Origin: Minisyncoccia bacterium
Lineage (GTDB): Bacteria > Patescibacteriota > Minisyncoccia > Phycocordibacterales > PALSA-1337
DNA: 64,000 bases
Assembly: GCA_044228445.1 (NCBI GenBank)
Contig: JBGAUV010000001.1
Coordinates: 250,495 to 314,494 of the forward strand
Reading direction: 5' to 3'
How positions within the stretch are numbered: the first letter of the stretch is position 1; every line of letters begins with the position of its first letter. Shown here piece after piece: positions 3,723 to 64,000 of the stretch. Made by a program: the position numbers and the translations under genes. The notes under the pieces were generated by a model that was not told the origin of the DNA, ran no database searches, and was given only the letters and a program-made list of their open reading frames with translations.

Positions 3723-5250
3723 TTAGTTAAGAGTTTGATCCTAGCTCAGGATGAACGCTGGCGGCGTGGATAAGGCATGCAAGTCAAACGGCTTAGCACT
3801 GTGCTCGCAAATTAATATTTGTTAGTAGAGTGCTAAGCAGTGGCAGACGAGGTAGTAATAAGCAGGTATCAACCTTCGAGTCAAGAATACCTCATCGAAA
3901 GATGAGTTAATACTTGATAGTCTCGAAAGAGTAAAGATTTATCGCTCGAAGATGAGCCTGTTCAGTATCAGCTAGTTGGTAGGGTAATGGCCTACCAAGG
4001 CTTCGACGCTTAGGGGAGGTGAGAGCCTGACCCCCACCGATGGAACTGAGACACGGTCCATACACCTACGGGTGGCCGCAGTCGAGAATCTTCCGCAATG
4101 GACGAAAGTCTGACGGAGCGACGCCGCGTGGATGATGAAGCACTTCGGTGCGTAAAATCCTTTTGCCAGGGAGAAAGTTTATTGATAGTACTTGGCGAAT
4201 AAGAGGTTGCTAAACTCGTGCCAGCAGCAGCGGTAATACGAGTGCCTCAAGCGTTATCCGGAATCATTGGGCGTAAAGGTTGTGTAGGTGGTTATATTAG
4301 TCTTTTGTTAAATTCTTCGGCTTAACCGGGGGCATGCAGAGGAAACGGTATAACTAGAGGATGCGAGGGGTTTCTGGAACTCATAGTGTAGCGGTAAAAT
4401 GCGTTGATATTATGGGGAACACCAAAAGCGAAGGCATGAAACTAGAGCACTCCTGACACTGAAACAAGAAAGCGTGGGTCGCGAATGGGATTAGATACCC
4501 CAGTAGTCCACGCCCTAAACGATCTTCTCTTGCTTTTCGGAGTATCGACCCTCCGAGAGGCGAAGCTAACGCGTTAAGAGAAGCGCCTGGGTAGTACGAC
4601 CGCAAGGTTAAAACTCAAAGGAATAGACGGGGACTTGCACAAGCGGTGGATCATGTGGCTCAATTCGACGGTAAACGAAGAACCTTACCAGGGTTTGAAA
4701 CCTAGCTGAATACTTTAGGAAACTAGAGTAGTCGCAAGACAGTTAGGCAGGTGATGCATGGCCGTCGTCAGTTCGTGGCTTGAGTTGTTCCCTTCAGTGG
4801 GGTAACGAACGCAACCCTCGTTGTCTGTTATATTTGTCAGGCGAGACTGCCCACGACATAGCGCATAAACTAAGTTTGTGCTCTGCGTCGTGGGAGGAAG
4901 GTGAGGATGACGCCAGGTCAGCATGTCCCTTTGATACCCTGGGCTGCACACGTGATACAATCGTATCTACAACAGGACGCAATACCGATAAAAGGTGGAG
5001 CAAATCCTTAGAAAAGATACGTCAGTTTGGATTGAGGTCTGCAACTCGACCTCATGAAACCGGAATCGCTAGTAATCGCAGATCAGCTATGCTGCGGTGA
5101 ATACGTTCTCAAGTCTTGTACTCACCGCCCGTCAACTCAAGGGAGTTGGGAGTACCCGAAGTCCGCGCTTGTCGCGGCCTAAGGTAAGCTCAATGACAGG
5201 GAGTAAGTCGTAACAAGGCACGGGTAGCGGAAGCTGCTCGTGGATTATTT
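3723..5250 (+). rRNA. rrs: 16S ribosomal RNA
   Basis: AGAGTTTGATCCTAGCTCAG at 3730; GTGCCAGCAGCAGCGGTAATACG (515 region, one mismatch to the universal primer); AAGTCGTAACAAGG at 5206; helix 45 with GGAA loop at 5221-5240. Confidence 0.95.
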
Positions 5251-5407
5251 CAAATTGAATCTTGATAATCCCTCAGGGATTATCTTACCGAGTCGATTTT
5301 TGTACTTAATTGTACAAACAAGGGATATTGTTCTACTACCTTACAGTGAACACTCAGTCTGCGAGAGAAAAGACAAAGATCGGTGTCCTCTATAGAGACA
5401 CTGATCG

Positions 5408-7426: not shown

Positions 7427-8842
7427 ATGAAACCAGTAAAGAAGACAAAGATAGTTTGTACTATAGGACCAGCAACAGAAAGTTATGAAAAACTCTCATC
7501 ATTAGTTGATGCAGGTATGAATGTAATGAGACTAAATTTTTCTCACGGTGATTTTGCTGAACATCAAAAGAGGGTAGATAATCTTAGAAAATTAACTGCA
7601 AAGACAGGTGATATAGTTACAATATTTCAAGATTTAGGTGGTCCAAAGATTCGTATTGGTGATTTTGAAAATGGAGCTATTATTCTAAAAGAAGGTGAAA
7701 CTTTTACTCTTACGACAGAAAAGATAATTGGAAATGAAAAGAAAGTTCATGTTAATTATCCATTATTACCAAAGGAAGTAAAAGTCGGAGGTTATATATT
7801 ACTTCACGATGGAAAGAAAAAATTACAAATTACTGGAATAAAAGGTAATGAAGTAATAACAAAGGTTATAGTAGGAGGAGAAATCAAAAATAGAAGAGGC
7901 GTAAATCTTCCTGGAGCTTATCTTTCAATAAGTTCAATAACAGAAAAAGACAGAAAAGATTTGGAATTTGGAATTAAAAATGAACTAGATTATATTGCTC
8001 TTTCTTTTGTAAGACGTCCAGCCGATGTAATTGAATTAAGAGAATTACTTAAAAAGGCAAAATCAAAAGCAGGAATAATATCAAAAATCGAGACACCAGA
8101 AGCACTGGAAAATATTGATGAAATTATAAAATTATCTGATGCAATTATGGTAGCAAGAGGGGATCTTGCGATTGAAATTCCAGCTGAAGATGTACCAATG
8201 GCTCAGAAAATGATTATAAGAAAATGTAATGCACTTGGAAAACCTGTTATTACAGCAACTCAAATGCTTGAATCTATGATAAAAAGTCCTGTTCCAACAA
8301 GAGCAGAAGTTTCTGATGTTGCTAATGCAATAATTGATGGTACTGATGCAATAATGTTGTCTGAAGAGACTACACTAGGAGATTTTCCAGTTGAAGCAGT
8401 TAGTATGATGACAAGGATAGCTAAGAGAATTGAAGGAGAAATATATACAAATAAAACAATATCAGAATATGACCATTCTCATGGTATTACTGATGTAGTT
8501 TCAAGATCAGCAGTCTTAACAGCACATGAGCTAGAAGCAAAGACAATAGTAGCTTTAACAGCAACAGGTAAAACTGCGCGTATGGTTTCTAGATATCACC
8601 CAGCTGAAATTATAACAGCTTTTACTACAGATGAAACTGTTGCAAGACAATTAAGTCTATCATTTGGTTGCTATCCAGTAGTTGTGCCATCATTTACATC
8701 AATAAATACAATTGTAAATACAATAAAGAAAATTGCTCCAAAAAAGGATATTGCAAAGAAAGGAGATAAAATTGTAATAGTAGCTGGTATGCCTTTTGCA
8801 AAAGGGCAAGAGACAAATACAATTCTAGTTGAATCAATATAG
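7427..8842 (+). CDS. pyk: Pyruvate kinase
   Basis: KTKIVCTIGPA, MNVMRLNFSHG, MVARGDLAIEIP motifs. Confidence 0.9.
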   Translation: MKPVKKTKIVCTIGPATESYEKLSSLVDAGMNVMRLNFSHGDFAEHQKRVDNLRKLTAKTGDIVTIFQDLGGPKIRIGDFENGAIILKEGETFTLTTEKIIGNEKKVHVNYPLLPKEVKVGGYILLHDGKKKLQITGIKGNEVITKVIVGGEIKNRRGVNLPGAYLSISSITEKDRKDLEFGIKNELDYIALSFVRRPADVIELRELLKKAKSKAGIISKIETPEALENIDEIIKLSDAIMVARGDLAIEIPAEDVPMAQKMIIRKCNALGKPVITATQMLESMIKSPVPTRAEVSDVANAIIDGTDAIMLSEETTLGDFPVEAVSMMTRIAKRIEGEIYTNKTISEYDHSHGITDVVSRSAVLTAHELEAKTIVALTATGKTARMVSRYHPAEIITAFTTDETVARQLSLSFGCYPVVVPSFTSINTIVNTIKKIAPKKDIAKKGDKIVIVAGMPFAKGQETNTILVESI

Positions 8843-56205: not shown

Positions 56206-59121
56206 ATGAGTATATCAATAAGAAGAGCCGACGGTAGTCTAGCCCCATTTAATGCAGATAAAATAAATCGTTCTATAGAACGTGCATGTATTGGACTTAC
56301 AGATCCAATATCAATGGTTACTCAAATAGCTACAGAAACACAACTTACACTTCATGAAGGTATTACAACTGAAGAAATGGATAAAGCTACAATAAATGCC
56401 GCAGTACAAAATATAAAAGAGGATCCAGAATACGATAAGGTTGCAACTAGATTGCTTTTAAAGACTATATACAGAAAGGTTGTAGGAGAATACGATAAGG
56501 ATGATTATGAAGATTTAAAAAGAAAACATAGAGATGCATTTATAACTTATATAAAACAAGGGGTAAAAAACAAGACTCTTCATTCCAATATGGAAAGTCT
56601 TTTTGATCTTAATGCTTTAGCTGATACTTTAAATATAGATAGAGATGAATTATTCCTATACGCAGGATTAGATGGTTTGGCGCATAGATATATGATAAAA
56701 GATACTAAGGGTAATGTAATTGAAACACCACAGTATTTTTTTATGAGAGTAGCTATGGGTTTGTCTTATGTTGAGAAAAATCCTACAGAATACGCAAAGA
56801 AGTTTTATCATAAAATGTCAAAACATGAATATATCGCTGGAGGTTCAGCAAATCTCGGTGCAGGAACTCCAAGTTCTTCATTATCAAACTGTTTTTTACT
56901 AGAAGTTCATGATGATATGCAACATATAGCAAAGTCTGTATCAGATGTACTTCTACTTTCAAAGAGCTCAGGGGGGTTGGGAGTTTCTATAACAAAGTTA
57001 AGATCTTCCGGTTCACCACTAAAATCAGGTTTTGGAGGAAGTTCAAGCGGTCCTACACCTTTTGCAAAAATAATGGATACATCTATTCGTGCAGTTATGA
57101 GAGGTGGTAAAAAGGTAGGTGCATTGTGTTTCTATATGGAACCATGGCATTTGGATTTTACAGAATTCATAGATTGGAAGAACAATAGCGGAGATGATTA
57201 TGCTCGTATGAGAACAGCAAATACCGCTGTATACATTTCTGATGAATTCATGAAGAGATCTAGAGATGGAAAGGATTGGTATATGTTTGATCCAGCAGAA
57301 ACACCAGATTTAAATGAATTATACGGACAAGCTTTCAGTAAAAGATATATCGAATATGTAGACATGGCTGATAAAGGAATGATGAGAACATTCAAGAAAA
57401 TTCCTGCAAATGAATTATTTAGAAAAATTCTAGTATCAATGCAAACAACATCACATCCTTGGTTAGTTTGGAAAGATACCATAAATCTCCGTGCCTTGAA
57501 TAACAATACAGGAACAATACATATGTCTAATCTATGTACTGAAATATGTTTACCACAGGACAGAGAAAATGTTGCTGTATGTAACCTGGCATCAATAAAC
57601 TTAGCTGCTCACGTAAGCAATAAACAAGTAAACTGGGGAAAGCTAGAAGAAAGTGCAAGACTAGCAGTAAGACAACTCGACAATCTTATCGATATAAACA
57701 TGCTACCTATTCCAGAAGCAGTAAAATCAGATAAAGAAAATAGAGCAATGGGACTAGGGGTAATGGGTTTTGCAGATGTAATAGAAAAACTAGGTATGGC
57801 TTATGACAGTGAACATGCTTGGGATTTTGCAGATAGAATATTTGAATTTGTAAGCTATATGGCTATAGATGAAAGTGCAAATCTAGCTCAAGAAAGAGGT
57901 ATATATAAACATTTTGAAGGATCTATGTGGTCAAAGGGTAAGGTCCCAATAGATTCAATTGAAAATTTAGAAAGAGATAGAGGAATAAAAGTAAGTGTTA
58001 TTAGAGATAGTAAGCATCGTGGTTTAAACTGGAATTTACTTAGAGAAAAAGTTAAAAAAGGAATGAGAAATTCTACTTTAATGGCTGTGGCTCCAAATGC
58101 AAACATTGGTCTTGTTGCAGGTACCACTCCAGGAATAGATGCACGTTTTGCTCAAGTCTTTTCAAGAAATAAAATATCAGGAAAGTATATGGACCTAAAC
58201 CATAACCTAGTAAATGATTTGAAGAACATGGGTATATGGGAAAAAGTGAGAGATCAAATAATTGAAAATCAAGGCGATATTGCACATATAGAAGGAATTC
58301 CACAATATTTGAAGGATATATACAAAACTTCATTTACAACTTCACCTTATGCATATATAGAAGTTGCTGCTAGAGCTCAAAAGTGGGTTGATCAAGCACT
58401 TTCTAGAAATATGTATTTGGAAACAAGAGATCTAGATGAAACTATGGCTATATATGCTACAGCTTGGGAAAAGGGTTTGAAATCAACTTATTATTTACAC
58501 CTAAAACCTCGTCATACAGCAGAACAAAGTACAATAAGAGTAAATAAAGCAGAGAAAATGGGTAAGATAGGCTTTGCTGCTGTAGCAAAAGCAAAAACAG
58601 AGAGCCAATCTCCAATAGAAAAAGAAACAGAAGTAGCTTTCTCTATGCCAAAGCAAACAAGCATACCAGTTTCAAATATAATAGCTAAACCTACCAATAC
58701 CTTTAGCCCTTCAAATACATCTATGTATACTGGAGTACAAAATATTAATTCAAATAAGCCAGTTCAAAAAGATTCTGAACCAGTTGTTTCTATATATAAT
58801 GAACCAACAATATCAAATATAATGTCAGAAGTTCCAGCAAAGGTGCCTGCTATGGTTGGTTTCGGGGCAGTAAAAAAACAAGAAAATATAGAAGTTAAAA
58901 CAGAAGTTAAGAGTCCTCAAATAATAGAAAATGATATAAAACCTCAATTCACAGAAAATAATTTGAACACAAGTTTTACACAAAATAAATATTCAGATAT
59001 ATCATCAATTGGTATGATACAAGCAAAAGAACAAAATGTAGTTCAAAATAAGGTAAAGATGGCTCCCAAGGTTTGTCCAATAGACCCAGCAGAAAGAGCA
59101 CAGTGTGATAGTTGTCAGTAA
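56206..59121 (+). CDS. nrdA: Class I ribonucleoside-diphosphate reductase alpha subunit with ATP-cone and extended C-terminus
   Basis: N-terminal ATP-cone (RRADGSLAPFNADKINRSIERA); NLCTEI; terminal CPIDPAERAQCDSCQ. Confidence 0.9.
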   Translation: MSISIRRADGSLAPFNADKINRSIERACIGLTDPISMVTQIATETQLTLHEGITTEEMDKATINAAVQNIKEDPEYDKVATRLLLKTIYRKVVGEYDKDDYEDLKRKHRDAFITYIKQGVKNKTLHSNMESLFDLNALADTLNIDRDELFLYAGLDGLAHRYMIKDTKGNVIETPQYFFMRVAMGLSYVEKNPTEYAKKFYHKMSKHEYIAGGSANLGAGTPSSSLSNCFLLEVHDDMQHIAKSVSDVLLLSKSSGGLGVSITKLRSSGSPLKSGFGGSSSGPTPFAKIMDTSIRAVMRGGKKVGALCFYMEPWHLDFTEFIDWKNNSGDDYARMRTANTAVYISDEFMKRSRDGKDWYMFDPAETPDLNELYGQAFSKRYIEYVDMADKGMMRTFKKIPANELFRKILVSMQTTSHPWLVWKDTINLRALNNNTGTIHMSNLCTEICLPQDRENVAVCNLASINLAAHVSNKQVNWGKLEESARLAVRQLDNLIDINMLPIPEAVKSDKENRAMGLGVMGFADVIEKLGMAYDSEHAWDFADRIFEFVSYMAIDESANLAQERGIYKHFEGSMWSKGKVPIDSIENLERDRGIKVSVIRDSKHRGLNWNLLREKVKKGMRNSTLMAVAPNANIGLVAGTTPGIDARFAQVFSRNKISGKYMDLNHNLVNDLKNMGIWEKVRDQIIENQGDIAHIEGIPQYLKDIYKTSFTTSPYAYIEVAARAQKWVDQALSRNMYLETRDLDETMAIYATAWEKGLKSTYYLHLKPRHTAEQSTIRVNKAEKMGKIGFAAVAKAKTESQSPIEKETEVAFSMPKQTSIPVSNIIAKPTNTFSPSNTSMYTGVQNINSNKPVQKDSEPVVSIYNEPTISNIMSEVPAKVPAMVGFGAVKKQENIEVKTEVKSPQIIENDIKPQFTENNLNTSFTQNKYSDISSIGMIQAKEQNVVQNKVKMAPKVCPIDPAERAQCDSCQ

Positions 59122-59210: not shown

Positions 59211-60224
59211 ATGTTAATAGGAAAAGCATCACCAGAAGATACAAGTCTACACCCAATAAAGTATAAATGGGCTTATGATCTATACAATCAAGCAGTTAGA
59301 AATACTTGGTTTCCACATGAAATTACTCTAAAAGAGGATATGGATGATTGGAAGAAGATGACTGATGATGAAAGACATGCAGTTACATTCCTAATGGCAT
59401 TCTTTAACCCTGCAGAACTTATTGTAAATCGTTCAATTGCTTTAGGAATTTACCCTTATCTAAAGTCTCCAGAGTGCCATCTTTATCTAGCAAAACAAAT
59501 GTGGGAAGAGGCAAATCACTGTGTGGCTTTTGAATATGTTCTAGAAACATTTCCTTTTGATAGAGAAAAAATATATAACCTTCATCTTGAAGTTCCTTCA
59601 ATGAAAGCAAAAGAGGATTATATAAATAAATACATGAAGAGAATGACCGATGTTTCTCTAGATGTAAGTACTACAGAAGGTAAAAAAGATTTTATACGAA
59701 ATCTTGTTGCTACAAACATTGTGATGGAAGGAATATGGTTCTATTCAGGTTTTATGGTTGCTCTTTCATTCCGTCAGAGAAAACAACTTAGAAACTTCGG
59801 TTCTATGATTAACTGGGTTTTGAGAGATGAAAGTCTTCACTTAAAATTCGGTATGAACCTTATTCACAATATCTTGGAGGAAAATCATGATCTATTAACT
59901 GAAGATTTTGCAAATGAAATAAGAAATATAATCATAGAAGGAGTTGATAAAGAAGTTGATTATAATATGGATCTTTTCCCAAACGGTATTCTTGGTCTAA
60001 ATGCTGATTATGTTAATCAATACGTAAAGTATGTTACAGATCGTCGCCTAGAAGAACTAGGTTTTCCTCCACACTACAATGCTACAAACCCAGCAAAATG
60101 GATGTCTACTGCTACAGATGTTTATGAGCTTGTTAATTTCTTTGAAGCACAAAATACAAGTTATGAAGTAGATGTAAGAGCACATTCAGAAAAGAAAGAG
60201 GAGAAGAAAGAGGCGGGGGAGTAA
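59211..60224 (+). CDS. nrdB: Ribonucleotide reductase beta subunit, class Ic-like (R2c)
   Basis: Metal site EEANHCVAFEY has Phe at His+4, where class Ia has the radical Tyr; first ligand is Glu (NPAELIV). Confidence 0.85.
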   Translation: MLIGKASPEDTSLHPIKYKWAYDLYNQAVRNTWFPHEITLKEDMDDWKKMTDDERHAVTFLMAFFNPAELIVNRSIALGIYPYLKSPECHLYLAKQMWEEANHCVAFEYVLETFPFDREKIYNLHLEVPSMKAKEDYINKYMKRMTDVSLDVSTTEGKKDFIRNLVATNIVMEGIWFYSGFMVALSFRQRKQLRNFGSMINWVLRDESLHLKFGMNLIHNILEENHDLLTEDFANEIRNIIIEGVDKEVDYNMDLFPNGILGLNADYVNQYVKYVTDRRLEELGFPPHYNATNPAKWMSTATDVYELVNFFEAQNTSYEVDVRAHSEKKEEKKEAGE

Positions 60225-60226
60225 TT

Positions 60227-60646
60227 ATGTTAGTTGTTAAGACTAAAATTAAAAATAGTGAAATTGAAGGACTAGGTCTATTTGCTGATCAGTTTATACC
60301 TAAAGGTAGTGTAATTTGGAAATATGATCCAAGTTTTGATATTTATTTTGATCCTAAGGAGGTAGAAAAAATGTCAGAACCGCAAAAAGACCTGATAATA
60401 CATTTTGCTTATCTTTCAAAAAAAAGTGGTAAATATGTTTATTCAATAGATAATACAAGATTCACAAATCATTCAAATAAACCAAATACCGTAGAAGATG
60501 AAAATGTTTGTAGTGATGATTTAGAAATATGTACTATTGCTGTTAAGGATATTCAAATAGGGGAGGAAATTACTATTGATTATCGGGTAATTGACGCAGT
60601 GGATGAAGGTAGTAATGAGGAGTATTTGAAGACGGTAGTTCTATAG
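60227..60646 (+). CDS. SET-domain protein (putative lysine methyltransferase)
   Basis: GLGLFA, RFTNHSNKPN, GEEITIDY; starts 3 nt after the nrdB stop, preceded by GGGGGAG. Confidence 0.8.
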   Translation: MLVVKTKIKNSEIEGLGLFADQFIPKGSVIWKYDPSFDIYFDPKEVEKMSEPQKDLIIHFAYLSKKSGKYVYSIDNTRFTNHSNKPNTVEDENVCSDDLEICTIAVKDIQIGEEITIDYRVIDAVDEGSNEEYLKTVVL

Positions 60647-60663
60647 AGTTTTTATGGTTTAGG
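60628..60663 (+). repeat. Junction motif copy 1
   Basis: GAAGACGGTAGTTCTATAGAGTTTTTATGGTTTAGG; supplies the last 6 codons and the stop of the SET gene. Confidence 0.7.
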
Positions 60664-60703
60664 AATAAAAGTGGGCTCACCGAAACGAATTTCAGTGAGC
60701 CCA
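60660..60703 (-). terminator. Minus-strand terminator hairpin
   Basis: On the minus strand: TGGGCTCAC-N14-GTGAGCCCA followed by CTTTTATT. Confidence 0.5.
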
Positions 60704-60748
60704 GGGACAACCTTTTTCTCATGTTTCGCTCGCCACTACTTAGATACC

Positions 60749-60921
60749 TAAGATTTAGGCAAAAATTTACCCCACTTACATTTCCGTAAGTGGGGCGTAC
60801 CTAGGAATTTAGGATGACTTGAATCGTCTTGCGACGAATGATCAGAGCCATAAAAACCTAGATATATAAGATACTGACTTCTACATCACAGCAAACTACT
60901 ATAACTTTGTCAAGTGACAAA
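60749..60921 (+). repeat. 173-bp repeat, copy 1
   Basis: 172/173 identical to 62711-62883 by manual alignment (C/T difference at 60888 versus 62850). Confidence 0.9.
60758..60878 (-). ncRNA. Candidate sRNA A, copy 1 (~120 nt)
   Basis: Minus-strand promoter TTGACA-N17-TGTGAT (60885-60913); internal TCGTC-GCAA-GACGA hairpin; terminator CCCCACTTAC-GGAAAT-GTAAGTGGGG then TAAATTTTTG. Confidence 0.5.
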
Positions 60922-60937
60922 TGTGTGTACCTAAAAC

Positions 60938-60964
60938 AGTGGTCTCATAGAGTTTAAGGTCTAG
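60938..60964 (+). repeat. Junction motif copy 2
   Basis: AGTGGTCTCATAGAGTTTAAGGTCTAG. Confidence 0.7.
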
Positions 60965-60969
60965 CTATA

Positions 60970-60998
60970 TTGACATACTAAACTAAATGTGCTATTTT
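60970..60998 (+). promoter_or_regulatory. Promoter of cassette A: TTGACA-N17-TATTTT with extended -10 TG
   Basis: Read directly. Confidence 0.5.
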
Positions 60999-61017
60999 TG
61001 TATGTAATAGCACATTT
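60985..61017. promoter_or_regulatory. 11-bp perfect inverted repeat spanning the -10/TSS (operator-like)
   Basis: AAATGTGCTAT-N11-ATAGCACATTT. Confidence 0.55.
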
Positions 61018-61050
61018 CAACGATTTCAACCCAAAACCATTAGGAGAACC

Positions 61051-61425
61051 ATGAGCAAGCCTTCTTTCACCGTATTTGTTGGCATAAAGGGCGAATTCTC
61101 AGAAGAAGATTACGCCAAACTTCCGTCCGAGCTTCGAAAAGCATACTCGCCGTGTCCTGAATGGGATCTGGGAGAGGAAATCATTATCGACGGATTGGAA
61201 TTTGATTCCTTTGACCTTGGTCGCGATGACACTGCTGATCCGGGAGAATATGTGGGCTTCGGCGTCCATATCTTCGGTCAGTGGTATGACAGCGGAGCTA
61301 CTTGCTTCGCTCTTGATGAGCTTCAAACAATCGAATCTGTTCGTCAGAAGATGACAACTCTCTTCGATCAATGGAAGCTCGATGCCAAAGTCGAAGTGTT
61401 CTGCTTTGCAGGATACAATTCATAA
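61051..61425 (+). CDS. Island cassette A: acidic 124-aa protein, unknown function
   Basis: TAGGAGA-N5-ATG; GC-rich codon usage unlike the flanks; own terminator. Confidence 0.65.
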   Translation: MSKPSFTVFVGIKGEFSEEDYAKLPSELRKAYSPCPEWDLGEEIIIDGLEFDSFDLGRDDTADPGEYVGFGVHIFGQWYDSGATCFALDELQTIESVRQKMTTLFDQWKLDAKVEVFCFAGYNS

Positions 61426-61441
61426 CCCATCAACTCACTCC

Positions 61442-61480
61442 AGAAAACCCCTGTCGCGAGATGGTGGGTTTTCTGTTTTA
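61442..61480 (+). terminator. Rho-independent terminator of cassette A
   Basis: AGAAAACCC...GGGTTTTCT-GTTTTAT. Confidence 0.7.
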
Positions 61481-61654
61481 TAAAATTCCAATATGTTGAT
61501 ACTAACAGACTTGAACGGCATCCTAAATAGATGTCATTTATTGTTACTTGCTATATAAAAATCTCGTTGATATGTTGTTAGGTAAGACGAGCTTGAAATC
61601 AAAATAAAAACTAGAGCATCTTCTATGGGGAATTCAATCAGTATTTAACTCTGT

Positions 61655-61688
61655 GAAGACGGTAGTATTATAGAGTTTAAGGTTTAGA
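61655..61688 (+). repeat. Junction motif copy 3
   Basis: GAAGACGGTAGTATTATAGAGTTTAAGGTTTAGA; the upstream AGTATTT is also shared with copy 1. Confidence 0.7.
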
Positions 61689-61692
61689 CTAC

Positions 61693-61720
61693 TTGACATA
61701 TGACCATGTCGTGATATAAT
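61693..61720 (+). promoter_or_regulatory. Promoter of cassette B: TTGACA-N16-TATAAT with extended -10 (TGa)
   Basis: Near-consensus sigma70 promoter read directly. Confidence 0.7.
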
Positions 61721-61779
61721 TTAAAAGGACTAGGATTTTTCCTAATGCTGTCCAGCAAAATCATACTTGGAGGATAGAA

Positions 61780-62139
61780 ATGTACTCTGACGATAAAACT
61801 CTAAAAGAGTTCATGACTGTACTTGTAAGTACAGCTGCGGCTCGGAGAAACTACTTGGATGTCCCTAGCGATTTCATTTTGAGACATCCCTGGACACTGA
61901 AATACCTTTCCAATTTCGCTGAGGCTGACGATTTCATGCAGATCGCGAAAACGGAAGGAGTCCAGATTGTTTGCGAGGATGAACCCAAAAACATTCAAGA
62001 GTTTCGCCGGGACCATGGTCTCAAACCACAGGTTCGCTACAAAGTGTTTGTTCCAGCCGAAACAAAAATCAGAACAAAAGAACAGATCTTCAAGTTCGAA
62101 AGACAAGGAGATGGTTCATATGTTCCACTCAATGGCTGA
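61780..62139 (+). CDS. Island cassette B: 119-aa protein, unknown function
   Basis: TGGAGGA-N5-ATG; own terminator. Confidence 0.65.
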   Translation: MYSDDKTLKEFMTVLVSTAAARRNYLDVPSDFILRHPWTLKYLSNFAEADDFMQIAKTEGVQIVCEDEPKNIQEFRRDHGLKPQVRYKVFVPAETKIRTKEQIFKFERQGDGSYVPLNG

Positions 62140-62142
62140 ACC

Positions 62143-62187
62143 AAAACCCCATCTACGCTTTCATGAGAAGATGGGGTTTTGTCTTTT
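62143..62187 (+). terminator. Rho-independent terminator of cassette B
   Basis: AAAACCCCATCT-N14-AGATGGGGTTTT-GTCTTTT. Confidence 0.75.
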
Positions 62188-62188
62188 A

Positions 62189-62222
62189 GAAGATGGTGGT
62201 TTAATGTAGTTTAAAATTTAGA
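62189..62222 (+). repeat. Junction motif copy 4
   Basis: GAAGATGGTGGTTTAATGTAGTTTAAAATTTAGA. Confidence 0.6.
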
Positions 62223-62388
62223 TAAAAGAAAGCCGGCCAAACCTTATGGGTCTGGCCGGGAAAGTGATGGGTATGCGCCCATCTGCGGATCATTTACGAT
62301 CATTTTGCCAGTAAAATAAGGTTATTTCTGGTTACGTATCCCTGGTATTGTGTCCAGACACGTAACTTATGAATACTAACCTTATTCT
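62222..62388 (-). ncRNA. Candidate sRNA B (~165 nt), same promoter as sRNA A, different body
   Basis: Promoter TTGACA-N17-TATGAT (62395-62423, minus strand). Long hairpin AATAAGGTTA...TAACCTTATT enclosing GTTACGT/ACGTAAC. GATGGG-CGCATA-CCCATC hairpin. Terminator CCGGCCAGACC-CATAAGG-GGTTTGGCCGG then CTTTCTTTT. Confidence 0.5.
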
Positions 62389-62429
62389 TTTACCATCATA
62401 GCAAATTACTATAACTTTGTCAAGTATTC

Positions 62430-62462
62430 AAAGATGTCGGTGTTATGGAGTTCAAGTTCTAA
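62430..62462 (+). repeat. Junction motif copy 5
   Basis: AAAGATGTCGGTGTTATGGAGTTCAAGTTCTAA. Confidence 0.55.
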
Positions 62463-62478
62463 CCTCTATTGATATAAT
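62451..62478 (+). promoter_or_regulatory. Promoter of cassette C: extended -10 TGaTATAAT, weak -35 TTCAAG
   Basis: Read directly. Confidence 0.5.
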
Positions 62479-62522
62479 TAATCTAGAGTGTTAATCTTCT
62501 TTTTAAGAAAGGAGAGTACATC

Positions 62523-62720
62523 ATGATCAAAATTACTGTCCGTAAAGAAGGAGAGAGAACCTTTGCGGCCTATGTGGACGATGAAAATATGCGGCGCATA
62601 GGTGAGTCTCGAGGAGAAGCTGTTGGCAAAGTCGTATCTGATCTCATTGAACAAAGGTCAGTACGGTTGGAAGATTGTCAAGTGCATCAAATCGAGATTA
62701 AACAAAAATATAAGATTTAG
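62523..62720 (+). CDS. Island cassette C: 65-aa protein, faint HicB/DUF1902-like N-terminal pattern
   Basis: AAAGGAGAG-N6-ATG; MIKITVRKEGERTFAAYVDD...GESRGEAVGKVVSDLIE. Confidence 0.55.
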   Translation: MIKITVRKEGERTFAAYVDDENMRRIGESRGEAVGKVVSDLIEQRSVRLEDCQVHQIEIKQKYKI

Positions 62721-62883
62721 GCAAAAATTTACCCCACTTACATTTCCGTAAGTGGGGCGTACCTAGGAATTTAGGATGACTTGAATCGTCTTGCGACGAA
62801 TGATCAGAGCCATAAAAACCTAGATATATAAGATACTGACTTCTACATCATAGCAAACTACTATAACTTTGTCAAGTGACAAA
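62711..62883 (+). repeat. 173-bp repeat, copy 2
   Basis: See copy 1; begins inside the last codons of cassette C. Confidence 0.9.
62720..62840 (-). ncRNA. Candidate sRNA A, copy 2
   Basis: Promoter TTGACA-N17-TATGAT (62847-62875, minus strand); body identical to copy 1. Confidence 0.5.
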
Positions 62884-62910
62884 GATAGTGGTCTCATCGG
62901 GTTTAAAATA
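62881..62910 (+). repeat. Junction motif copy 6 (degenerate)
   Basis: AAAGATAGTGGTCTCATCGGGTTTAAAATA. Confidence 0.5.
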
Positions 62911-62917
62911 ACCAGTA

Positions 62918-62946
62918 TTTACAATTTGTATAATTTAGTATATAAA
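62918..62946 (+). promoter_or_regulatory. Promoter of cassette D: TTTACA-N17-TATAAA
   Basis: Read directly. Confidence 0.5.
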
Positions 62947-62981
62947 AAATGTAGACTTAATTTAACACTGAAAGGTGCATC

Positions 62982-63200
62982 ATGAGTATTCTAAGAGAAT
63001 TCCGTAACGCCAGCCCAAGTGAAAAAGACCCTGCAAAACTTATTTTATTCACAGTATTTGCTGACCTTAATGCTCGGCACGGCTTCGGGGATTTCTGGAG
63101 CGGTATTAACAATGATATAAAAGAAGAAATTTTGAAAACAAATCTCGAAAAGATAAGAGAAATACTGAAGAAAAAGACTCAAACCAAAAACAAAGATTGA
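62982..63200 (+). CDS. Island cassette D: 72-aa protein, unknown function
   Basis: AAAGGTG-N4-ATG; own terminator. Confidence 0.6.
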   Translation: MSILREFRNASPSEKDPAKLILFTVFADLNARHGFGDFWSGINNDIKEEILKTNLEKIREILKKKTQTKNKD

Positions 63201-63224
63201 AAAAAAGTGACTGAATCAATCCAG

Positions 63225-63268
63225 GCCTCGTGTATATACATAAAAGTAAACACGAGGCTTTGAATTTT
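63225..63268 (+). terminator. Rho-independent terminator of cassette D
   Basis: GCCTCGTG-N18-CACGAGGC-TTTGAATTTT. Confidence 0.75.
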
Positions 63269-63322
63269 ATATATCACACTTATATTTTAATAAATAACCA
63301 TTTGCCATAATATATTAAGATA

Positions 63323-63331
63323 TGGTATAAT
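63323..63331 (+). promoter_or_regulatory. Extended -10 (TGgTATAAT) of the rnpB promoter
   Basis: 6-7 nt upstream of the predicted RNase P RNA 5' end. Confidence 0.5.
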
Positions 63332-63336
63332 TATTA

Positions 63337-63672
63337 GGTACCAGACAGTTGCTATGATACGAAAGTATCGTAGAGGAAAGTCCGAACATTGGCCTGACGC
63401 AAGTTAGGCAGAAAGGTAGCGGGTAACGCCCGTCAGTCGAAGGACTAGAGGTGCGAACAGAGACGTCTTTATTGGAAACGATAAAGAGACCCTTCGGGGT
63501 TAGCTTGTATAGAAATATATGAGGTGCAACGGCAAAATCCTTACCCCAATGCAAGGCCGTGCTTTATAGGAAACTATAAAGAGTGCCGCTTGAGGTTAAT
63601 TGCAAAATTAATCCCAGATAAATGACTGTCGTTCGTTTTTAACGAATACAGAATTCGGCTTACAGGTACAAT
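63337..63672 (+). ncRNA. rnpB: RNase P RNA, bacterial type A
   Basis: ACCAGACAGTTGC, GAGGAAAGTCCG, GGTAACGCC, GCAAGGCC, GCCGCTTGAGG, AGATAAATGACTGTC, ACAGAATTCGGCTTA all align to the E. coli M1 RNA conserved blocks. Confidence 0.9.
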
Positions 63673-63680
63673 ATGAAAAA

Positions 63681-63706
63681 ACTCTCCTTAGCGGTGAGTT
63701 TTTTCA
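63681..63706 (+). terminator. Terminator after rnpB
   Basis: ACTCTCC-TTAGC-GGTGAGT followed by TTTTTT. Confidence 0.55.
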
Positions 63707-63813
63707 TTTATATAGCCAAAAAATACAACATATTATCAACAAAATTAACCTATTTTCGGGTGTATTTATCTGGTATAATCAAATTATATAAATTATATTT
63801 AAAATAGAAAAAA

Positions 63814-64000
63814 ATGAACCCAACAACACAAAATGCAACCTTTTTTGAAAGAGTCGAATCGATCTTGGTGTACACAACTACACTTTTGGTGATAATAGGT
63901 TTCATTCCTTCAAATATAATACCTTTTGATTCAGCAAAAACTGTATTTATTTCAATCGGTATGATATTGGCTTTTATCGCCTATATGATAGGTGTAGTAA
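63814..64000 (+). CDS. Membrane protein, 3'-partial (runs off the window)
   Basis: ATG at 63814, open to the window end; MNPTTQNATFFERVESILVYTTTLLVIIGF... is hydrophobic. Confidence 0.4.
   Translation, partial: MNPTTQNATFFERVESILVYTTTLLVIIGFIPSNIIPFDSAKTVFISIGMILAFIAYMIGVV

Follow-up and report, generated by a model that had tools for sequence, protein, structure and literature searches.

Why does a bacterial gene for a SET-domain protein end in a repeated DNA motif, and how did it come to lie between nrdB and rnpB? The locus that raises this question is in a 64,000-nt stretch of the genome of a Minisyncoccia bacterium (assembly GCA_044228445.1, contig JBGAUV010000001.1, positions 250,495 to 314,494 of the forward strand), which we call the window and whose numbering is used throughout. 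The SET gene (60227-60646, plus strand) starts directly behind nrdB and runs into the first of six copies of a 33-nt motif, and the other five copies lie in an island of small genes that extends towards rnpB. Knowledge of how the Candidate Phyla Radiation (CPR; Patescibacteria), with its tiny genomes, gains and exchanges accessory genes is scant. Our reading, to which we assign a probability of about two-thirds, is that the SET gene sits on a single-gene cassette ended by the core attachment (att) site of integrative elements that target ychF, and that further cassettes piled up at this site to form the island.

By its sequence, the open reading frame (ORF) at 60227-60646 is a bona fide minimal SET-domain protein of 139 amino acids and a predicted methyltransferase, in agreement with an earlier sequence-only reading of this DNA. 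It matches the Pfam SET family (PF00856) with an E value of 9.1e-16 and 58.6 bits (cut-off 22.4), and residues 15-119 align with profile positions 1-104 of 105, that is, with the whole domain. The three peptides on which the sequence-only reading had relied, GLGLFA, NHSNKPN and GEEITIDY, are all found in the translation. Further, across 37 orthologues there is no variation at G15, G17, N81-H82-S83, E114 or Y119 and hardly any at E113; these columns are the S-adenosylmethionine-binding GxG, the NH(S/C) and the catalytic Tyr of ExxxDY, and they align with the corresponding residues of Set2 and NSD. Sequence matches in the Protein Data Bank are the SET domains of Set2, NSD, SETD2 and MLL (E 1e-6 to 1e-2), with ∼22-26% identity to the eukaryotic enzymes. 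The AlphaFold (AF2) model has a mean confidence (pLDDT) of 69.6, falling below 50 in tail residues 136-139, and its top Foldseek matches are all SET domains (vSET, Set7, MLL and NSD; E ∼1e-6, template-modelling score just 0.41-0.55), the best being vSET (3kma) and Schizosaccharomyces pombe Set7 (5h6z). The composition of the gene is native (GC 0.298; GC at third codon positions, GC3, 0.17). Homologues are common across Parcubacteria groups and, at 38-48% identity, are also found in metagenome-assembled genomes (MAGs) labelled Alphaproteobacteria, Verrucomicrobia and Lentisphaerae, and a search of viral contigs with the SET alignment found no SET relatives. The protein is presumably cytoplasmic. 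Overall, the SET gene is unremarkable within a minimal-SET family that is widespread in prokaryotes, and it is the packaging of the gene that is unusual.

The last five SET codons and the stop (AAG ACG GTA GTT CTA TAG) lie inside motif copy 1 and are read there in the +1 frame, so that the 3' end of the gene, TTGAAGACGGTAGTTCTATAG, overlaps the motif and the stop is the TAG within its invariant ATAGAG. Copy 1 (60628-60662, plus strand) reads GAAGACGGTAGTTCTATAGAGTTT-TTATGG-TTTAG and differs from the 33-nt consensus, GAAGATGGTGGTGTnATAGAGTTTAAGATTTAG, by a 2-nt indel in its right third. On a position weight matrix (PWM) its left 24 nt score 30.9 bits, compared with 27-34 bits for the same stretch in the other copies, and its sequence is identical in two independent assemblies (L001 and L002). 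The remaining copies start at 60932, 61655, 62189, 62430 and 62881 and score 29.6-45.4 bits, whereas 20 shuffles of the whole window reached at most 11.6 bits. A PWM scan of the 64 kb found no motif copy outside 60628-62913, and copies 2-6 are all located between SET and rnpB. Five unrelated cassette ORFs, encoding a NUDIX protein and four unknowns, enter the motif in the same +1 frame and share the tail ...K(T/M)xV(S/L), ending at the TAG of the invariant ATAGAG. The proposal that the 3' end of SET is built from the junction motif is thus borne out.

Comparison of the C termini of SET orthologues revealed the same motif-encoded tail in other contexts. In P0002, which is the closest orthologue (81% identity), the C terminus is exactly the same, ...EEYLKTVVL, and many other orthologues end in KMVVS, KTIVS or KTAVS. 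Y133 and L134 are invariant, and the residues beyond them vary in length: orthologues at 63% identity or less are without the motif and end ...YL(K/N)x-stop, right after the invariant YL, and a 136-aa variant (L016, YLKM-stop) has what was judged by eye to be a decayed motif at the end of the gene. The last five residues (KTVVL), which the att core would encode, are probably dispensable. Since orthologues in other genomes and contexts already carry both the tail and a downstream motif, the tail must be older than the island of this window.

In the close orthologues the motif flanks the gene on both sides. The unit between motif copies measures 424-425 nt in L003, L009, L011, L012, L013 and L014/15, its upstream motif copy lies 23-24 nt before the SET ATG, and the cassette with its motif amounts to 458 bp and a single gene. 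This unit occurs in five genomic contexts, with the orders ychF-SET (L003, L012), ychF-NUDIX-SET (L011), transketolase (tkt)-SET-dprA (L009) and uvrA...SET...uvrC (L013, L014), and the DNA flanking it is unrelated beyond the motif. On these comparisons the SET gene appears to travel, in this Paceibacteria/Parcubacteria clade, as a single-gene cassette, with a 24-nt leader, the ORF and the 33-nt motif at its 3' end. Of the two explanations that the sequence-only reading had left side by side, it is the second, with SET as the first cassette, that these data favour: the 3' end would be built from the motif because SET is itself a motif-terminated cassette, and not because an island invaded SET. 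Nor is SET the sole cassette to recur, as cassette X (the unit next to SET in the window), the NUDIX cassette and one non-coding, RNA-type cassette each occur in two or more arrays; cassette X is 95% identical in L074, where it too directly follows a motif.

What the motif resembles is apparent from its own reading frame. Every copy translates as (E/K)-D-G-(G/S/D)-x-(I/M)-E-F-K-(I/V)-stop, which is the C terminus of YchF. A metagenome scan for further loci (at least 120) was seeded with the motif itself and followed up with the PWM and tblastn, so that frequencies among these loci are not unbiased. Among them, 36 frame-0 matches are true ychF ends (KDGDVIEFKI-stop), and the cassette and integrase-linked copies read EDGGxIEFKI-stop. 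Many contigs have one to four extra motif copies, 150-900 nt apart, downstream of ychF, with leuS conserved on the far side, and the motif-ended cassettes between ychF and leuS measure 93-824 nt (median 409). The 78 distinct copies outside ychF share the consensus given above, and conservation falls to background directly at both edges. Their GAA..GGT GGT, which is kept across genomes, is distinct from the AAA..GGn GAT of the local ychF ends.

A tyrosine recombinase (Pfam Phage_integrase, E 1.9e-25) is encoded in nine loci that were retrieved through the motif alone. In eight of the nine, a near-consensus motif lies on the same strand as the integrase, ∼350 nt past its stop; the exception is L091, where the sole motif copy found is ∼780 nt away. 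Homology between the integrase loci stops exactly at the motif. Cassettes and leuS come after the integrase and its motif in L131, L128 and L167, and the order in L111 is integrase arm, motif, small cassette, motif, NUDIX cassette. The ychF arrays have no recurrent integrase adjoining ychF; where the integrase does occur is on the distal (attR) flank of integrated elements. Homologues of the integrase (68-91% identity) adjoin phage-like gene blocks encoding, among others, SSB, RusA, DnaC-like, ParB_N, DNA methylases, Acb2/Tad1-like and T4_Y16D proteins. At this distance after the 91%-identical integrase of L190 the motif is strong (43.9 bits), whereas the matches at that place are only weak in L188 (22.7 bits) and in L189 (13.5 bits, which hardly exceeds the best shuffle). 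In L190 and L189, where the phage block lies downstream, an inverted copy of GATGGTGGTG follows the motif, as folded or read by eye. More distant relatives of the integrase, at 46-48% identity, are found on IMG/VR viral contigs. A search of viral contigs with the motif pattern gave weak or chance matches, none of them at a ychF end or beside an integrase.

The integrase is part of a conserved module (L131 2945-4375; also in L122, L071, L167, L081, L074 and L190) that consists of the tyrosine integrase, a small basic ORF, a promoter-like site, ∼150 conserved nt and the att core. The small basic ORF reads VKNKAAQELGKKGG...KVRWGK, and more distant relatives carry a small helix-turn-helix ORF instead. 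Upstream of the integrase is a conserved, structured-looking 5' leader, ACAACCGAATAT...CCCCGAAAGGGATC.... At 6254-6442 of L190 (NCBI GCA_004028595.3, SCLI03000058.1), beside the integrase, a protein with a Pfam match to the Acb2/Tad1 hairpin is encoded, which is a candidate anti-defence gene of a presumed CPR phage.

From these observations we propose the following sequence of events. The motif would be the core attachment site of integrative, prophage-like elements whose tyrosine integrase targets the 3' end of ychF. The elements would bring with them a substitute for the final 10 codons of ychF and the stop, which would explain why the motif copies translate to E-D-G-G-x-I-E-F-K-I-stop, and the integrated configuration would be ychF-attL...int-attR-(cassettes)-leuS. 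The integrase would recombine motif copies, probably with the crossover within AGTTTAAG, and the small motif-terminated units would be integrase-less modules accreting at the ychF att site. The SET cassette would be one such module, its ORF running into the att core in the +1 frame and stopping at the TAG of ATAGAG. In the genome analysed here this cassette would have come to sit right after the nrdB stop, with its left motif copy and its promoter lost. The att core at the 3' end of SET would then have served as a landing pad at which seven more motif-bounded cassettes accreted, four of RNA type and three protein-coding, and a terminal unit with ORF72 and no motif would fill the remainder of the nrdB-rnpB slot up to rnpB.

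Several observations weigh against this mechanism. The 64-kb window holds no integrase homologue and no ychF, so that action in trans must be assumed; no excised circle and no empty-site pair of a single cassette was observed, the evidence for mobility being all comparative; and the metagenome scan used the motif as its seed. The motif itself is without dyad symmetry. At X/D1a and ORF65/D1b, two of the junctions in the window, a proper left half-site is missing, and the difference between the window and L002 is largely explicable by homologous recombination between the two 173-nt copies of D1; not every rearrangement need be integrase-mediated, and for some of them homologous recombination between repeated cassettes is an equally good explanation. 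Finally, SET has no upstream motif in the window, and the arrival of the cassette at the nrdB stop is left unexplained.

The alternative that fares best, and which we nevertheless regard as improbable, is that the arrays were built without a dedicated recombinase, through homologous or microhomology recombination after natural transformation, with the 33-nt ychF end and its copies as anchors. This would account for the absence of an integrase beside most ychF-leuS arrays, for the non-canonical junctions and, through the D1 repeats, for most of the difference between the window and L002. It does not account for the consensus that the cassette copies have of their own, which is distinct from the local ychF ends and kept across genomes, for the integrase-att modules joined directly to arrays, or for boundaries that are sharp to the nucleotide.

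A little less probable again is that the motif is a transcription-control element (an operator, a UP-like element or part of a promoter) of co-regulated small genes, its overlap with SET being a regulatory site packed into the end of a gene. Copies 2, 3, 5 and 6 do have a promoter-like site directly downstream of them (which in two of these cases reaches consensus in a promoter scan), and the SET cassettes of relatives have an extended -10 (TGnTAnAAT) 8-9 nt past the motif, with TTTAAG as a possible -35. However, copies 1 and 4 precede minus-strand terminators and not promoters, and a control element leaves unexplained why the ychF frame and stop are kept in every copy, why the integrase lies at a fixed 350 nt in eight of nine loci, and why homology breaks exactly at the motif.

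The first explanation of the sequence-only reading, in which SET was already resident in this genome and had its C terminus swapped when a foreign island inserted into its 3' end or recombined there, has very little probability left. The downstream cassettes are indeed richer in GC than SET, and the boundary falls exactly in the last SET codons. However, orthologues elsewhere already have tails such as KTVVL, KMVVS and KTIVS and a downstream motif (L003, L009, L011, L012, L013 and L014), some with no further cassettes (L009), and P0002 combines the identical ...EEYLKTVVL end with a downstream motif beside ychF, among other neighbours. Just as improbable is the suggestion that the SET protein, gained from eukaryotes through horizontal transfer, is secreted as an effector and methylates histones or other proteins of the host: the Set2/NSD/MLL domains of eukaryotes, to which its sequence is weakly similar, and its similarity to the SET part of Legionella AnkI/LegAS4 (28 bits, cut-off 550) speak for it, but the N terminus is by eye unlike a signal peptide, the GC and GC3 of the gene are native, the identity to the eukaryotic enzymes is low, and the family is widespread in Parcubacteria groups and present in other bacterial MAGs.

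In the window, nrdA (56206-59121) is followed by nrdB, which encodes the small subunit of class I ribonucleotide reductase (59211-60224, plus strand; Pfam Ribonuc_red_sm, E 8e-77) and whose 3' end aligns with L185 and L186 up to the stop. As had been noted, SET starts 3 nt after this stop: the TAA occupies 60222-60224, two bases (TT) follow, and the ATG is at 60227. Relatives with 90-91% identical NrdB (including L185 and L186) keep the DUF192-nrdA-nrdB block with rnpB downstream, and they have other genes between nrdB and rnpB, no SET and no motif. Because the slot holds these other genes in relatives, SET and the array are a lineage-specific filling of it. Conserved nrdB-SET synteny was rejected, since SET orthologues have other neighbours and the NrdB relatives are without SET, and the functional coupling to nrdB that had been suggested falls with it. 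We also observed that NrdA has a low-complexity C-terminal extension of ∼200 aa past the Pfam barrel (window 58500-59121, residues ∼765-971), which ends in CPIDPAERAQCDSCQ.

The sequence-only reading had further pointed to the Shine-Dalgarno (SD)-like GGGGGAG before SET. Its rarity was confirmed, an SD-like core being present upstream of just 1 of 46 ORFs of at least 150 aa, but its function as an SD was not. GGGGGAG (60215-60221) lies within the nrdB codons GCG GGG GAG, the end of nrdB being GCG GGG GAG TAA here and GCG ACG GAG TAA in L185. Further, and in line with the rarity of SD-like cores, the 3' end of the 16S rRNA (3723-5255) reads GTGGATTATTTC at 5236-5255 and lacks the canonical anti-SD CCUCC, with GGATTATTTC in place of GGATCACCTCC. 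Because these are native nrdB codons and the 16S rRNA has no anti-SD, a functional SD is very unlikely. In relatives, the leader of the SET cassette contains an extended -10, TGnTAnAAT, whose end is 6 nt upstream of the ATG; given how far a -10 usually lies from the start site, the SET mRNA would be leaderless there. Upstream of SET in the window there is no motif copy, and the leader of the cassette is also gone. Because the left motif copy and the promoter have been lost, SET would depend on read-through from nrdAB; ribosomes that terminate at TAA-TT-ATG of the nrdAB transcript would probably re-initiate there and so translate SET.

The island downstream differs from its surroundings in composition, with a GC content of 0.385 at 60647-63300 compared with 0.288 in the rest of the window. 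The protein-coding cassettes downstream of SET have a GC of 0.36-0.47 and a GC3 of 0.34-0.46. Cassette X (60663-60748, minus strand) is non-coding and shows no signal other than a terminator hairpin (60672-60703); its own motif is truncated to TAAG here and complete in L001 and L002. It is followed by cassette D1a (60749-60964, minus strand), a small-RNA unit with a promoter TTGACA-17-TGTGAT (∼60913-60885), weakened in its -10, and a terminator at 60796-60769, and with motif copy 2 at its end (60932-60964, plus strand). The ORF124 cassette (60965-61687, plus strand) has a promoter at 60970-60998, the ORF at 61051-61425 (GC 0.47), a terminator at 61450-61468 and motif copy 3 at its end (61655-61687). 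The ORF119 cassette (61688-62221, plus strand) has a consensus promoter at 61693-61720, the ORF at 61780-62139, a hairpin at 62142-62181 and motif copy 4 (62189-62221). Cassette Y (62222-62462, minus strand) is a second kind of small-RNA unit, with a promoter at 62423-62395, a terminator at 62259-62233 and motif copy 5 (62430-62462, plus strand). The ORF65 cassette (62463-62720, plus strand; ORF 62523-62720) ends in the right part of the motif alone (TAAGATTTAG), and cassette D1b (62711-62913, minus strand), the second copy of D1, has a promoter at 62875-62847, a terminator at 62758-62731 and motif copy 6 (62881-62913, plus strand). The terminal unit (62914-63300, plus strand) contains ORF72 (62982-63200) and a hairpin (63220-63263) and has no motif after it; the short-array variant L002 has this unit too. 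On its right the variable slot is bordered by rnpB, for class A RNase P RNA (63333-63678, plus strand; Rfam RF00010, 120 bits).

The four island ORFs had no match in Pfam, NCBIfam or PADLOC. The RNA units, all on the minus strand and all with intrinsic terminators, comprise D1 (∼130 nt, two copies) and Y (∼165 nt); D1b and Y have near-consensus promoters (TTGACA-17-TATGAT), and the folding z-scores of the RNA-type units are all strongly negative (D1 -5.7, Y -4.3). Rfam searches of the whole window (with gathering thresholds) and of 60000-64000 (with E values up to 1) returned only RNase P RNA, 16S rRNA and a tRNA, so that the RNA cassettes match no family. RNA-type cassettes like D1 and Y were also seen in L013 and L155. 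The two D1 copies form a 173-nt repeat that is 99% identical (60749-60921 and 62711-62883, minus strand). In L002, which encodes the same SET protein, only X, with a complete motif (1438-1583), and D1 precede ORF72; compared with L002, a 52-nt deletion in the window takes out the motif of X. The L001 assembly breaks 24 nt into D1 (ends at 8139), as expected at a repeat.

Motif copy 3 is directly preceded by a conserved element of ∼110 nt (61545-61654), which begins with a promoter-like TTGCTA-N17-TATGnT and continues AGACGAGCTTGAAAT.... The element is also found ahead of motifs in L156, in L105 and, twice, in L149; it is not significantly structured as RNA (z +0.6) and may be the remnant of an element arm or another RNA unit. 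The sequence-only reading had remarked that the end of SET recurs at 61642-61666. The string does recur, with GAAGACGGTAGT at 61655-61666, although its AGTATTT begins at 61640. This match of AGTATTT before copies 1 and 3 was rejected as coincidental, at most a microhomology: in SET it corresponds to the invariant E-Y-L codons, and at 61640 it is part of the conserved pre-motif element found in L156, L149 and L105. Separately, the terminator after ORF124 (61438-61475, CCAGAAAACCCCTGTCGCGAGATGGTGGGTTTTCTGTTTT) is ∼81% identical to one just upstream of the SET cassette in L013 (1154-1205), a likeness that suggests related cassettes in unrelated arrays.

The locus thus offers a defined 33-nt site, a candidate integrase, a primary hotspot between ychF and leuS and secondary arrays, which together make a concrete and testable mechanism, and a catalogue of minimal cassettes that carry a SET methyltransferase, a NUDIX hydrolase and structured RNAs of no known family. 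For annotation, it accounts for the K(T/M)xV(S/L) tail common to unrelated small proteins of the clade and for assemblies that break after the SET gene, and it corrects three tempting inferences, namely functional coupling to nrdB, a functional SD and a role as histone effector. A wider proposal, which we put forward tentatively and at clearly less than even odds, is that Paceibacteria (CPR) possess a form of gene capture analogous to integrons. Here, a phage-type tyrosine integrase and the 33-nt, ychF-stop-like att core would move promoter-bearing single-gene or single-small-RNA cassettes between phage genomes, the ychF-leuS hotspot and secondary pads, including the SET-end copy that seeded the nrdB-rnpB island, and SET, NUDIX and the minus-strand RNAs would be exchangeable cargo, possibly in phage-host conflict. 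In the literature searched, whose incomplete coverage makes this no proof of absence, we found nothing on ychF as an att site in this clade, on cassette arrays in CPR or on an integron-like platform for CPR/Patescibacteria.

Compared with known systems, the SET protein resembles the minimal SET methyltransferases (PBCV-1 vSET, S. pombe Set7, the Methanosarcina SET protein and the SET part of Legionella LegAS4/RomA) in having a single SET domain of ∼120-140 aa with GxG, NHS and ExxxDY and, as in those enzymes, no pre-SET or post-SET zinc clusters. It is unlike them in its low identity (22-26%), in the moderate quality of its AF2 model, with a template-modelling score of ∼0.45, in the att-bounded cassette on which it lies and in the five final residues that att would encode. 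The likeness of the arrays to integrons is in their layout: single-gene cassettes that each end in a site, content that varies between strains, ORFs that enter the 3' site, and a tyrosine recombinase. However, most cassettes here have their own promoters, and the integrase, which points the same way as the array and belongs to a phage-like element, scores far below the IntI models (TIGR02249, 51.5 bits vs cut-off 265; NF011946, 26.7 vs 435). The attC sites of integrons are imperfect palindromes of 50-130 nt that are conserved in structure. An attC-like nature of the motif was rejected, as it is 33 nt long, is conserved in sequence and has a DNA fold of 0 kcal/mol, and copies with their flanks fold no better than shuffles.

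Xer/dif modules (Acinetobacter pdif, and the elements known as IMEX) are likewise small and bounded by short repeated sites, and the best NCBIfam matches of the integrase are XerA, XerC and XerD, although all are far below cut-off (125 vs 220, 110 vs 335 and 109 vs 330 bits, respectively). A dif site measures 28-31 bp and has two inverted arms around a 6-8-bp spacer. The motif was rejected as dif-like: an 11-6-11 dyad architecture is missing, and no hairpin is formed by the consensus or by the copies in the window. Further, unlike the sites of Xer/dif modules, all motif copies are in direct orientation and do not alternate, and the site is in a coding 3' end.

There are close parallels with elements that target the 3' ends of genes (tRNA, tmRNA, fda and guaA-type att sites), in which a tyrosine integrase lies beside att and the core is the end of the target, including frame and stop. 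Equally, the direct repeats that flank units, and the stacking of integrase-less units beside an integrase-bearing element, recall the accretion of cis-mobilizable elements (CIMEs), which are tandem, integrase-less, att-flanked elements such as those associated with ICESt1/ICESt3 in Streptococcus thermophilus. Unlike known 3'-end elements and CIMEs, the system described here has ychF as its target and tiny units (93-824 nt) with one gene or small RNA, usually under its own promoter; its ORFs may end inside the att core, and it has secondary arrays away from ychF (nrdB/rnpB, uvrA/uvrC and tkt/dprA). Overall, the system resembles integrons in outline, departs from both integrons and Xer/dif modules in integrase and site alike, and appears to work in the manner of 3'-end-targeting integrative elements with CIME-type accretion.

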